Positions 5,317 to 23,125 of a stretch of 36,611 nt of DNA are shown piece by piece; position 1 is the first letter of the stretch; the number at the start of each line of letters is the position of its first letter. Position numbers and translations under genes: made by a program. The notes below the pieces were generated by a model. It searched no databases. It was not told the DNA's origin and saw only the letters and a list, made by a program, of their open reading frames with translations. Origin of the DNA: a virus (taxonomy: Duplodnaviria > Heunggongvirae > Uroviricota > Caudoviricetes); the IMG/VR virus record IMGVR_UViG_2874956758_000004, positions 1-36,611 of that record; one strand, given 5' to 3'.

Positions 5317-6539
5317 CTGTTCTCCAATGACTAGTCTAAAAACTAGTATTAAGACTATCACTTATTTAAGTGATACTGGTTGTCTGGAGATTCAGGGGGC
5401 CAGTCTAGTCAGGGTCTCCCCATCTGTTGCGGACAGAGCTCGCCACGATTCTGTAAATAATATCTTCTGTGGTTATATTTATTTTCACCCAGTCAGTCAG
5501 AAATCCAGATAAGGACCAGTAGGGGGCGTGATAAATGGGGCCGTTAATGCCGTAAAAAGTAAGGGATTTGGCTCTGCGCCGCGGTTCCCTTGTCTCAGGG
5601 TGTGCATCAATCCACCGGATGCTGAGCCCCCCTTCAAACAGTGTGTCGGGTATGATGATGCCGTAGGGGCCAGCAACGGAATATTCACCTGGCAGCGCAT
5701 TCCTTACCCAGACCAGGAAATCATCCTTAGCGTCAAAACGGATAACATCTTCATACAGAAAAGCACGCCCAAAGCCGAATGCGCCGGGTATCGCCAGACG
5801 GCCTTTTGTCCGGTCGTAAATGTCGCTCTGTGCTTCCATCGTGGCTGCACTTTTCAGCCCCAGATTATCCCGGGACTTCTGTTGTGCCTTTTCGCCTGCT
5901 GCTGCGATTTCAGACAGATGGTTAGCCGTTTTCAGGGTGCCGGTCAGCGCAGCATCAATGTCATTTTTGGCCTGTTCTGCTGCGCGGGCATAACCGGCGG
6001 CTGCCTGTGCTCGCTGACCGGATAAGACGGCGTTTTTCCCCGTGCTTTTCACGTCTTCCGCTGTGGCCTTTCTGTTCTCAGCTGTGACTGTTGCATCCTG
6101 TCGGGCTTTCTCCGCAAAACGTTGTGCATCATCACGGGCCGTTGCGGCTGCCGCCACATCCTGCGCCGTCTGCCGTGCGTTTCCGGCTGAGCTCCCGGCA
6201 CTCTGCTGCGCCTGTTGCGCCAGCTCTCCGAATTTCTTCAGGGATTCCGGACGCAGGTCAATATTAGTTGCGCCCAGAAAATCATTCAGCGAACCGTCCG
6301 TTGAATCTTCATAAACGCGGATGACACCGATTTCTGAAAGGCGCCGTGTACTTTGTGTCAGGCGAACGCTGTACACACCCGGCAGAACGGGGAAGTCATA
6401 TTCCCCGTTCTGTGTGGTGACATGGCTGAAAACACTTTTCAGAATCCCTGCACGGTTGTGCATGGAGGTTAGTGTTGAGGTAGCCTGAGTTTAACGGACA
6501 CTCCTTCCTGAAATAGAATGGCATCAGAAGGAGCTAATA

Positions 6540-6803
6540 ATGAGCAGAAAAACCCAACGTTACTCTAAAGAGTTCAAAGCCGAAGCTGTCAGAACGGTTC
6601 TTGAAAATCAACTTTCGATCAGTGAAGGCGCTTCCCGATTATCCCTTCCTGAAGGCACTTTAGGACAATGGGTTACCGCCGCCAGAAAAGGGCTCGGTAC
6701 TCCTGGTTCCCGCACGGTGGCTGAACTGGAATCTGAAATTCTGCAACTGCGTAAGGCGTTAAATGAAGCTCGCCTTGAGCGAGATATATTAAAAAAAGCA
6801 ACT
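6540..6803 (+). pseudogene. IS600 OrfA with its 3' end displaced by the IS30 insertion
   Basis: MSRKTQRYSKEFKAEAVRTVLENQLSISEGASRLSLPEG…LERDILKKAT then IS30 sequence; the displaced orfA tail (…AYFAQESLKNTR*) resumes at 8024. Confidence 0.8.
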
Positions 6804-8023
6804 GTAGATTCAATTGGTCAACGCAACAGTTATGTGAAAACATGGGGTTGCGGAGGTTTTTTGAATGAGACGAACATTTACAGCAGAGGAAAAAGCCTCT
6901 GTTTTTGAACTATGGAAGAACGGAACAGGCTTCAGTGAAATAGCGAATATCCTGGGTTCAAAACCCGGAACGATCTTCACTATGTTAAGGGATACTGGCG
7001 GCATAAAACCCCATGAGCGTAAGCGGGCTGTAGCTCACCTGACACTGTCTGAGCGCGAGGAGATACGAGCTGGTTTGTCAGCCAAAATGAGCATTCGTGC
7101 GATAGCTACTGCGCTGAATCGCAGTCCTTCGACGATCTCACGTGAAGTTCAGCGTAATCGGGGCAGACGCTATTACAAAGCTGTTGATGCTAATAACCGA
7201 GCCAACAGAATGGCGAAAAGGCCAAAACCGTGCTTACTGGATCAAAATTTACCATTGCGAAAGCTTGTTCTGGAAAAGCTGGAGATGAAATGGTCTCCAG
7301 AGCAAATATCAGGATGGTTAAGGCGAACAAAACCACGTCAAAAAACGCTGCGAATATCACCTGAGACAATTTATAAAACGCTGTACTTTCGTAGCCGTGA
7401 AGCGCTACACCACCTGAATATACAGTATCTGCGACGGTCGCATAGCCTTCGCCATGGCAGGCGTCATACCCGCAAAGGCGAAAGAGGTACGATTAACATA
7501 GTGAACGGAACACCAATTCACGAACGTTCCCGAAATATCGATAACAGACGCTCTCTGGGACATTGGGAGGGCGATTTAGTCTCAGGTACAAAAAACTCTC
7601 ATATAGCCACACTTGTAGACCGAAAATCACGTTATACGATCATCCTTAGACTCAGGGGCAAAGATTCTGTCTCAGTAAATCAGGCTCTTACCGACAAATT
7701 CCTGAGTTTACCGTCAGAACTCAGAAAATCACTGACATGGGACAGAGGAATGGAACTGGCCAGACATCTAGAATTTACTGTCAGCACCGGCGTTAAAGTT
7801 TACTTCTGCGATCCTCAGAGTCCTTGGCAGCGGGGAACAAATGAGAACACAAATGGGCTAATTCGGCAGTACTTTCCTAAAAAGACATGTCTTGCCCAAT
7901 ATACTCAACATGAACTAGATCTGGTTGCTGCTCAGCTAAACAACAGACCGAGAAAGACACTGAAGTTCAAAACACCGAAAGAGATAATTGAAAGGGGTGT
8001 TGCATTGACAGATTGAATCTACA
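6804..8023 (+). mobile_element. IS30 copy 1, about 1.22 kb, 2-bp target duplication AC, inserted in the IS600 orfA/orfB junction
   Basis: Ends tgtagattcaattggtcaacgcaac… and …gttgcattgacagattgaatctaca; flanks gcaAC|…|ACagcg. Confidence 0.9.
6865..8016 (+). CDS. IS30 transposase, apparently intact (383 aa)
   Basis: MRRTFTAEEKASVFELWKNGTGFSEIANILGSKPGTIFTMLRD… recognised as IS30 transposase. Confidence 0.9.
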   Translation: MRRTFTAEEKASVFELWKNGTGFSEIANILGSKPGTIFTMLRDTGGIKPHERKRAVAHLTLSEREEIRAGLSAKMSIRAIATALNRSPSTISREVQRNRGRRYYKAVDANNRANRMAKRPKPCLLDQNLPLRKLVLEKLEMKWSPEQISGWLRRTKPRQKTLRISPETIYKTLYFRSREALHHLNIQYLRRSHSLRHGRRHTRKGERGTINIVNGTPIHERSRNIDNRRSLGHWEGDLVSGTKNSHIATLVDRKSRYTIILRLRGKDSVSVNQALTDKFLSLPSELRKSLTWDRGMELARHLEFTVSTGVKVYFCDPQSPWQRGTNENTNGLIRQYFPKKTCLAQYTQHELDLVAAQLNNRPRKTLKFKTPKEIIERGVALTD

Positions 8024-8100
8024 ACAGCGTATTTTGCACAGGAGTCGCTGAAAAATACGCGTTAATCGAACAATGGCGACAACAATTTCCCATTGAAGCG

Positions 8101-21525: not shown

Positions 21526-22423
21526 GAAGTAAACTTTAACGCTGGTGCTGACAGTAAATTCTAGATGTCTGGCCAGTTCCATTCCTCTGTCCCATGTCAG
21601 TGATTTTCTGAGTTCTGACGGTAAACTCAGGAATTTGTCGGTAAGAGCCTGATTTACTGAGACAGAATCTTTGCCCCTGAGTCTAAGGATGATCGTATAA
21701 CGTGATTTTCGGTCTACAAGTGTGGCTATATGAGAGTTTTTTGTACCTGAGACTAAATCGCCCTCCCAATGTCCCAGAGAGCGTCTGTTATCGATATTTC
21801 GGGAACGATCGTGAATTGGTGTTCCGTTCACTATGTTAATCGTACCTCTTTCGCCTTTGCGGGTATGACGCCTGCCATGGCGAAGGCTATGCGACCGTCG
21901 CAGATGCTGTATATTCAGGTGGTGTAGCGCTTCACGGCTACGAAAGTACAGCGTTTTATAAATTGTCTCAGGTGATATTCGCAGCGTTTTTTGACGTGGT
22001 TTTGTTCGCCTTAACCATCCTGATATTTGCTCTGGAGACCATTTCATCTCCAGCTTTTCCAGAACAAGCTTTCGCAATGGTAAATTTTGATCCAGTAAGC
22101 ACGGTTTTGGCCTTTTCGCCATTCTGTTGGCTCGGTTATTAGCATCAACAGCTTTGTAATAGCGTCTGCCCCGATTACGCTGAACTTCACGTGAGATCGT
22201 CGAAGGACTGCGATTCAGCGCAGTAGCTATCGCACGAATGCTCATTTTGACTGACAAACCAGCTCGTATCTCCTCGCGCTCAGACAGTGTCAGGTGAGCT
22301 ACAGCCCGCTTACGCTCATGGGGTTTTATGCCGCCAGTATCCCTTAACATAGTGAAGATCGTTCCGGGTTTTGAACCCAGGATATTCGCTATTTCACTGA
22401 AGCCTGTTCCGTTCTTCCATAGT

Positions 22424-22792
22424 TCAAAAACAGAGGCTTTTTCCTCTGCTGTAAATGTTCGTCTCATTCAAAAAACCTCCGCAACCCCATGTTTTCACAT
22501 AACTGTTGCGTTGACCAATTGAATCTACAGTTGCTTTTTTTAATATATCTCGCTCAAGGCGAGCTTCATTTAACGCCTTACGCAGTTGCAGAATTTCAGA
22601 TTCCAGTTCAGCCACCGTGCGGGAACCAGGAGTACCGAGCCCTTTTCTGGCGGCGGTAACCCATTGTCCTAAAGTGCCTTCAGGAAGGGATAATCGGGAA
22701 GCGCCTTCACTGATCGAAAGTTGATTTTCAAGAACCGTTCTGACAGCTTCGGCTTTGAACTCTTTAGAGTAACGTTGGGTTTTTCTGCTCAT
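22424..22792 (-). pseudogene. IS600 OrfA (copy 2), 3' end displaced by IS30
   Basis: Same 122-aa translation as copy 1. Confidence 0.8.
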
Positions 22793-23125
22793 TATTAGCT
22801 CCTTCTGATGCCATTCTATTTCAGGAAGGAGTGTCCGTTAAACTCAGGCTACCTCAGTCGGCAGTTTTGTTCCATCACGTCTTCCTGCATCAACGGGCAA
22901 ATATGTTACTGTTGCTGGAATATTAACAACAGTCCAATGCCACCAACCACTGCCTGTAGGTGCATCTGGATCATATACAGTTACGGCAAAGCTTTTGGTA
23001 CCTTCAGGGACACCAGACCAGGTTAATGAGGGCGATGTATTACCACCTTCACACCCAAATCCAGAAAAGACATGAGACGTTGTAAGTTGCTCTCCTGTTT
23101 TTATTTCATTACTAGGCTGTGTCCC

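Follow-up and report, generated by a model that had tools for sequence, protein, structure and literature searches.

Two inverted IS600::IS30 composites in a decayed prophage of Shigella dysenteriae ATCC 12039

Introduction

Inversions associated with insertion sequences (ISs) are common in Shigella dysenteriae; 33 inversions have been mapped between two genomes of this species, and those of serotype 1 are all IS-associated (PMC8072062; PMC7819885). In the IS-mediated inversions and deletions of Shigella, inverted IS copies recombine, whereas the locus described here shows the substrate only, with no documented inversion. It lies in a stretch of 36,611 nucleotides (nt) of the chromosome of S. 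dysenteriae ATCC 12039 (CP026831.1; IMG/VR record IMGVR_UViG_2874956758_000004), hereafter the window, in which two inverted copies of IS600, each carrying an IS30, enclose a 9.8-kb block of a decayed, hybrid lambdoid prophage remnant beside icd. The two are best explained as paralogous copies of a widespread nested IS, which probably mark deletion or fusion junctions in the defective prophage and appear to have been shaped by gene conversion, inversion of the block being a potential rather than an observed event; we put the probability of this reading at roughly three in four.

The closest counterparts are the IS600::IS30 composites of Escherichia coli, which occur beside sat in extraintestinal pathogenic E. 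coli (ExPEC), inside a prophage gene of strain Z1323PEC0012 and on plasmids, and which share with the window copies the same 2,487 base pairs (bp), the same IS30 site and orientation and the same AC duplication (99.4-99.6% identity). These E. coli composites have a canonical right part and are flanked at two unrelated loci by 3-bp duplications of the IS600 type (AAC beside sat, CGC in Z1323PEC0012), whereas the window copies lack such duplications and carry either an altered HTV motif (copy 1) or foreign tracts and an extra IS (copy 2). A further ISEc52 insertion is present in the sat-adjacent copy of strain Nissle 1917. E. coli K-12 MG1655 has IS911A::IS30A (insN/insI1) in its CP4-6 prophage, where IS30 likewise lies past an A-rich signal (..TTAAAAAAGGCTAC/IS30/AC..), with the same AC and the same relative orientation, but the host IS is IS911 and there is one copy rather than an inverted pair. 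For the stx region of S. dysenteriae type 1, PMC7819885 cites McDonough and Butterton (1999). That region is reportedly a defective lambdoid late region bounded by IS600, and the IS600 copies flanking stx are reportedly direct repeats that give rise to tandem amplification and deletion. In the window, by contrast, the IS600 copies are inverted and nested with IS30, stx is absent, and an ISEc8-like IS stands between Q and the tRNA and lysis genes. The structure is real but ordinary IS biology in Shigella, and it illustrates how IS elements erode and stitch together Shigella prophages.

Structure of the two copies

A repeat search of the window returned two pairs of inverted arms, 6476-7812/21520-22856 (1,337 nt) and 7803-8962/18763-19922 (1,160 nt, 96% identity); the 100% reported for the first pair is a rounded value, there being four mismatches, all within IS30. 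The arms and their junctions bear out a first-pass annotation made from the letters alone, which had placed two nested IS600::IS30 composites in inverted orientation around 8963-18762, with the same IS30 site and the same 2-bp duplication in both; the insertion point is after IS600 nt 327, and the duplicated dinucleotide is AC. The parts are as follows.

6476-6802, plus strand: copy 1, IS600 left part (nt 1-327), orfA' from 6540
6803-8023, plus strand: copy 1, IS30 (1,221 bp) with an intact open reading frame (ORF) for a transposase of 383 amino acids (aa) at 6865-8016
8024-8962, plus strand: copy 1, second AC (8024-8025) and IS600 right part (nt 328-1264)
8963-18762, minus strand: prophage block of 9.8 kb, all genes on the minus strand
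18763-19701, minus strand: copy 2, IS600 right part and AC, orfB intact (272 aa, HSD)
19702-19921, minus strand: copy 2, IS30 3' part (about nt 1002-1221) with one copy of TTC
19922-21525, minus strand: IS3-family element of 1,604 bp with a 510-aa ORF at 19953-21485
21526-22529, minus strand: copy 2, IS30 5' part (nt 1-1004), transposase truncated, chimeric 330-aa ORF at 21475-22467
22530-22856, minus strand: copy 2, IS600 left part (nt 1-327)

Copy 1 (6476-8962, plus strand) comprises 2,487 nt, namely IS600 (1,264), IS30 (1,221) and the 2-bp AC duplication. Its left part, which holds the A7G frameshift run (IS600 nt 316-323), is 100% identical to that of copy 2 and to that of a solo IS600 in E. 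coli VL40. This annotated VL40 element, which has the programmed frameshift, was compared over 1,264 nt with the two copies after removal of IS30; identity is 99.4% for copy 1 and 97.1% for copy 2, and both belong to IS600 by length, termini and identity. In both copies IS30, placed after nt 327, parts orfA from orfB, so that neither would make OrfAB by -1 frameshifting; both are inactivated members. Copy 1 would be further disabled by a nonsense codon in orfB (TAG at 8476-8478) and by a D to V change within the replacement of HSD by HTV, encoded at 8620-8628 with substitutions at 8623, 8625 and 8627; both lesions had been noted in the first-pass annotation and are present. The IS30 of copy 1 has the length, the terminal repeats, the 383-aa transposase and the 2-bp duplication of that element, and matches the IS30 of the E. 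coli composites at 1,220 of 1,221 nt.

Copy 2 (18763-22856, minus strand) has the same junctions (...AAAAAAAGCAAC/TGTAGATT... and ...ATCTACA/AC/AGCG...) but extends over 4,094 nt, 1,607 nt more than copy 1, because a 1,604-bp element with its TTC duplication lies within the IS30. An IS3-family insert in this copy had been recognised earlier; it is indeed present, although its site is in IS30, at about nt 1004, and not in IS600. The element is bounded by inverted repeats (GGGGATGCGGACGATTTCCTGGAC) that match perfectly over 24 nt or more, and its product matches NCBIfam transpos_IS3 at 428 bits (cut-off 160) as well as Pfam rve, HTH_21 and HTH_Tnp_1. The DDE transposase, terminal repeats and 3-bp duplication place it in the IS3 family, with a single uninterrupted 510-aa ORF in place of the two ORFs joined by a programmed frameshift. 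The IS30 transposase of copy 2 has been lost to this recent insertion, and the two copies are now passive blocks of homology, save for the intact IS30 of copy 1. E. coli copies 98.9% identical to the 1,604-bp element are annotated merely as "IS3 family transposase," and one of them lies about 0.8 kb from the sat-island composite. Elements of the same type occupy 56059-57581 and 84583-85629 of the invasion plasmid (pINV) of the strain, on which there is a variant lacking nt 741-813.

The chimeric ORF formed with the interrupted IS30 has an exact protein match in a single public genome, that of S. dysenteriae ATCC 12039. The structure as a whole is seen in two independent assemblies, ATCC 12039 and a sister genome (GCA_031665835.1), the latter without the 1,604-bp element; their agreement on the structure rules out an assembly artefact.

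A 3-bp IS600 target duplication was sought at both copies and was found at neither (flanks TGT/GAA and GGT/GTC), nor did a notional inversion of the flanks restore one. This bears on the idea that both composites and the block moved in together as one IS600-bounded unit. The geometry, with inverted IS copies around cargo, is like that of Tn5 or Tn10. However, the sequences bordering the unit differ (TGT versus GTC), the unit is closed on either side by an IS600 left end, OrfAB could come from neither copy, cargo and flanks consist of prophage modules in colinear order, and the 16.4-kb unit was found at no other locus in the genomes searched. Such an origin is therefore extremely improbable, and classification as a compound transposon was rejected for want of both a duplication and a transposase source.

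An IS30 hot spot in IS600 and IS911

The target specificity of IS30 is dual, and the element favours near-palindromic hot spots (PMC9333248). At the LHS site of phage lambda, for which PMC9333248 cites Olasz et al. (1998), the target is near-palindromic, 2 bp are duplicated and one site is reused, as here. IS600 nt 326-327, 4 nt past the A7G frameshift run, is an IS30 hot spot: the same dinucleotide is reused in both orientations within a near-palindromic context. In our own, informal comparison, AAAAAAAGCAAC and AAAATACGCTGT, the half-sites in IS600, are alike and also resemble their lambda LHS counterpart AAAAGTGGCGAT. The pINV of the strain (NZ_CP026830.1) carries at least seven complete IS30 copies and one fragment, most of which adjoin IS600 nt 326/327. 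Both orientations occur there, each time with the same AC; the copies are joined to differing IS600 variants, and some adjoin IS911 halves. On a plasmid, IS30H (89.9% identical to IS30) occupies the same site of a 99%-identical IS600. In K-12 MG1655, IS30A splits IS911A at the homologous site, just after the A6G signal and with AC.

The two orientations are both widespread. Among 5,426 complete E. coli genomes, to which all E. coli counts given here refer, the 2,487-nt composite is found as a single-piece match at 99.6% in about 997, and a synthetic query for the junction with IS30 at the same nucleotide in the opposite orientation finds an unbroken 100% match in 361. The composite also occurs on plasmids of both E. 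coli and S. dysenteriae. The nested structure is much older than the ATCC 12039 genome.

Several observations concern the formation and decay of such composites. At the sat locus, E. coli N32 has the same IS600 without IS30 (NZ_CM165895.1, 894037-894763); it is the only one of the genomes searched with a solo IS600 there, hundreds having IS600::IS30, and its solo element is either the pre-IS30 state or the result of precise IS30 loss by conversion. In K-12-type genomes an IS600 remnant stops exactly at nt 327, the IS30 junction, which suggests that this fragment, too, is half of a composite, left by recombination of one IS30 with another. At about 148988-150208 of pINV, an IS30 right end is followed by AC and then by TGTAGATTCAATTG, an IS30 left end; this looks like a remnant of an (IS30)2-type junction, in which the right and left inverted repeats (IRR and IRL) are separated by 2 bp (IRR-2bp-IRL), the reactive intermediate described for IS30.

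Because the site is a hot spot that has been hit repeatedly and in both orientations, a shared junction with an AC duplication is insufficient to establish common descent. The earlier argument, that the identical junction shows the composite to have been duplicated after IS30 had inserted, thus fails, although the relatedness that it was meant to support is likely on other grounds (see below). For annotation, the sharing of an IS30 junction by copies of IS600 or of IS911 is unusable as a marker of common descent.

The hot spot also opens the way to a different history, in which two IS600 copies were already resident, IS30 entered the hot spot of each, and the markers that they share were spread later by conversion. 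Such a course is made conceivable by the hot spot itself, which is proven, by the solo and composite states at one E. coli locus, by the supply of IS30 on pINV (at least seven complete copies and a fragment, mostly at IS600 or IS911 hot-spot halves), and by the lack of any private single-nucleotide polymorphism (SNP) common to the IS30 of copy 1 and that of copy 2. On the other hand, the IS30 elements of the two copies point the same way, for which the chance is 50% if the insertions were independent, and the composite is commonly found already formed in E. coli and Shigella, as well as on the plasmid of the strain.

That the frameshift window of IS600, like that of IS911, is a clear hot spot for IS30 is a mildly interesting by-product of this analysis. 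It is also tempting to speculate that IS30 systematically targets the conserved near-palindrome just past the frameshift signal of IS3-family elements (IS600, IS911), abolishing OrfAB and yielding persistent non-autonomous composites, of which the pair in the window would be one product; the odds on this generalisation seem evenly balanced. If it holds, one IS parasitises or antagonises another, and the resulting composites, possibly still spreading in trans, are present in Shigella and in roughly one in four E. coli genomes, a proportion that adds the 997 to the 361 and is valid if the two sets do not overlap.

Relationship between the copies

Six IS600 sequences were compared at 89 sites that separate canonical IS600 (the solo element of VL40) from an IS600-like variant. 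The reference for the variant is an intact element of 1,264 bp that has the programmed frameshift and shares 93% identity with canonical IS600; it lies on the enteroinvasive E. coli (EIEC) invasion plasmid pCFSAN029787_01 (1475-2738 of the examined locus), where the Prokaryotic Genome Annotation Pipeline (PGAP) labels it "IS3 family transposase." Fragments of the variant type are also present on the pINV of ATCC 12039 itself.

Two foreign tracts in copy 2, at IS600 nt 340-394 and 621-796, match the diverged element and are found in copy 2 of both strains. In copy 1 of the sister strain, variant alleles occur at nt 340 and 621/627/629 only, and copy 1 of the window is canonical at these positions. 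About 36 of the approximately 47 differences between the copies lie in the two tracts of copy 2. The earlier view that the copies "have since diverged" is therefore mostly wrong, and gradual divergence was rejected, most of the differences being attributable to conversion tracts from a relative that is 7% diverged. A full-length mosaic of the copy 2 type was sought in E. coli, and no match reached 99% or more over the full length (best 96.7%).

The HTV codons are likewise composite: HT is the variant allele (nt 925/927), and V comes from an additional D to V substitution at nt 929. An interpretation of HTV as three private mutations was rejected, since two of the three are variant alleles and nt 929 alone is private. 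The allele 929T is common to copy 1 of the window and to both copies of the sister genome, copy 2 of the window being canonical at 925/927/929; HTV is thus not a novelty of copy 1, as had been supposed, for the sister genome has it in both copies. The exact HTV sequence is present in none of the E. coli genomes, and some 30 further IS600 copies in the examined Shigella and E. coli loci lack 929T. The sharing of this private change and of the tract boundaries at nt 340 and 621 means that a single mosaic composite was ancestral to both copies, that sequence has passed between them, or both. The same observation tells against separate IS30 insertions into two resident IS600 elements, a history that we consider unlikely, though still the strongest competitor. 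The two copies are probably paralogous, that is, related by duplication, as judged from sequence comparison.

The comparison between the strains also indicates how the copies change. ATCC 12039 and the sister genome show 0 differences over about 7.3 kb of unique block DNA and 10 and 6 in the 2.5-kb composites, from which we infer that change inside the IS copies reflects ectopic conversion, or in part polishing artefacts, rather than clock-like divergence. Private to copy 1 of ATCC 12039 are the TAG and two neighbouring changes, and private to the strain as a whole are the 1,604-bp IS, an IS2 in the tail-fibre gene and a frameshift in an ISSfl7-like element. Over 5408-36611 of the window, nine differences between the strains fall in this ISSfl7-like element, and the others are almost all in IS copies and the tail-fibre gene.

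The favoured model is that a pre-existing nested IS600::IS30 came to be present as two inverted copies, with their IS600 right ends facing inward, and that these copies, besides sharing ancestry or exchanging sequence with each other, would also receive conversion tracts from other IS600-family copies in the genome; such tracts would explain nearly all of the differences between them. The locus would then illustrate how multi-copy ISs homogenise and scramble one another by gene conversion, and sequence differences among IS copies should not be read as clock-like in annotation.

Prophage junctions

From high to low coordinates, the remnant begins with an integrase, YqaJ/RecT, a cI-like repressor, YdaS/T and lambda-type O and P, a region interrupted by two IS2 copies, and continues with a recombinase fragment, the ISSfl7-like element (IS5 family), copy 2, the block and copy 1. 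Below copy 1 lie a 5'-truncated tail-fibre gene, interrupted by IS2, a gene for a DUF4376 protein and ipaH. The features at and between the copies are the following; the block also holds a 209-aa ORF, a holin gene and ninH.

5405-6463, minus strand: tail-fibre gene, N-terminally truncated, adjoining the outer end of copy 1
9032-9343, minus strand: DUF4406
9385-9867, minus strand: Rz
9849-10382, minus strand: lysozyme
11589-11899, minus strand: four phage tRNAs (Gly-TCC, Thr-TGT, Arg-TCT and CAT)
11945-14379, minus strand: ISEc8-like element of the IS66 family (tnpA/tnpB/tnpC), 8-bp duplication AACTCATC
14542-14958, minus strand: Q
15464-16855, minus strand: DnaB-like helicase
16852-17739, minus strand: DnaC-like ATPase
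17939-18439, minus strand: truncated initiator-like ORF

The block is 98.5-99.2% identical to the yecE prophage of E. coli VL40. Since intact relatives carry Nu1, terminase (A), portal, head and tail genes after DUF4406, copy 1 marks the loss of the terminase-to-tail (morphogenesis) genes, and in the truncated tail fibre the Pfam phage_tail_N match begins only at profile position 34. Copy 2 cuts short the initiator-like gene upstream of the DnaC-like gene. Both copies would accordingly sit at IS-associated deletion or fusion junctions, with terminase-to-tail genes lost between DUF4406 and the tail fibre at copy 1 and the early region of a DnaC/DnaB-type replication module lost at copy 2. The remnant contains two different replication modules in the same orientation, the DnaC/DnaB type at 15464-17739 and the lambda O/P type at 26691-28313, and the locus is for this reason a fusion of two prophages or a recombinant.

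Orientation of the bracketed block

A reciprocal crossover between the copies would invert the 9.8-kb block. Such an inversion would be RecA-dependent and typical of S. dysenteriae, and is physically possible, generic and unprogrammed; it would have no evident functional consequence, because the prophage is without morphogenesis genes. If the block flipped, only this defective prophage would be affected (Q, tRNAs, lysis and replication genes), with no phenotype predicted. The first-pass annotation had proposed that the repeats could mediate inversion and that related genomes be compared for the inverted isomer. The 2.5-kb inverted repeats are indeed a legitimate RecA substrate, but the orientation is fixed as far as the data extend: both complete genomes that carry the structure (2/2) have the block in the same orientation with the same flanking junctions, and neither the inverted isomer nor another arrangement was encountered in these two when related genomes were looked up by exact protein. 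As it now stands, the block is colinear with the phage genes to either side, and the phage genes of block and flanks are all on the minus strand.

The look-ups differed in what they could contribute. Those by the ipaH and lambda-P proteins yielded the single informative sister genome. Those by DUF4406 and Q were too widespread, returning intact E. coli prophages and other Shigella, in which this prophage block recurs with IS600 insertions that are different and solo. The truncated initiator and the chimeric ORF returned only ATCC 12039 and short-read contigs broken at IS ends, which are uninformative on orientation.

An actively flipping segment, in which both isomers coexist and expression of Q, the tRNAs and the lysis genes is altered, would have at its disposal 2.5-kb inverted repeats of 98.4% identity (without the extra IS of copy 2) at a spacing of 9.8 kb, and traces of sequence exchange between the copies as well as the frequency of IS-mediated inversions in S. 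dysenteriae are in keeping with it. It is nevertheless very improbable. Apart from the common orientation of the two genomes, the 1,604-bp IS splits the homology of copy 2 into about 1.3 and 1.2 kb, a heterology of 1.6 kb, and a defective prophage is expected to confer no phenotype. Neither a site-specific recombinase nor short recombination sites for the repeats were found in the window, the sole trace being a recombinase fragment outside the element (24711-25232). The repeats are whole IS elements, and the segment is not a programmed invertible one of the Hin/Gin/Cin type or a shufflon.

Several points weigh against the interpretation of the locus as two conversion-shaped paralogous composites in a fixed arrangement. 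The shared 929T and tract boundaries could stem wholly from conversion between the copies after independent IS30 insertions, and some of the SNPs within the ISs may be artefacts of long-read polishing. With no 3-bp duplication at either copy, the arrival of IS600 is not directly readable. The fixed orientation is weakly sampled, with two complete genomes, and assemblies cannot show minority isomers. Finally, the colinearity of block and flanks may reflect an earlier IS-mediated fusion rather than original synteny, given the second replication module.

Other features of the remnant

The ISEc8-like element separates the tRNA cluster from Q and had gone unmentioned in the first-pass annotation. 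It occupies the interval between Q and the lysis genes, where matched Stx phages carry stx; the insertion is common to the sister genome, and related short-read contigs stop at its boundary. The CAT tRNA at 11823-11899 is called Met by ARAGORN, and its homologue in VL40 is annotated as tRNA-Ile (lysidine type). VL40 has an independent solo IS600 in the same initiator-like gene, in the opposite orientation and 194 nt from the copy 2 junction (18568 versus 18762). The truncated recombinase fragment, located between the ISSfl7-like element and an IS2, retains only a Zn_ribbon_recom domain and has no connection with the inverted repeats. At the tail-fibre end of the remnant, the chromosomal ipaH gene (1293-3044) encodes a 583-aa protein with LRR and NEL E3 ligase domains, of which an exact match is found in two genomes only.

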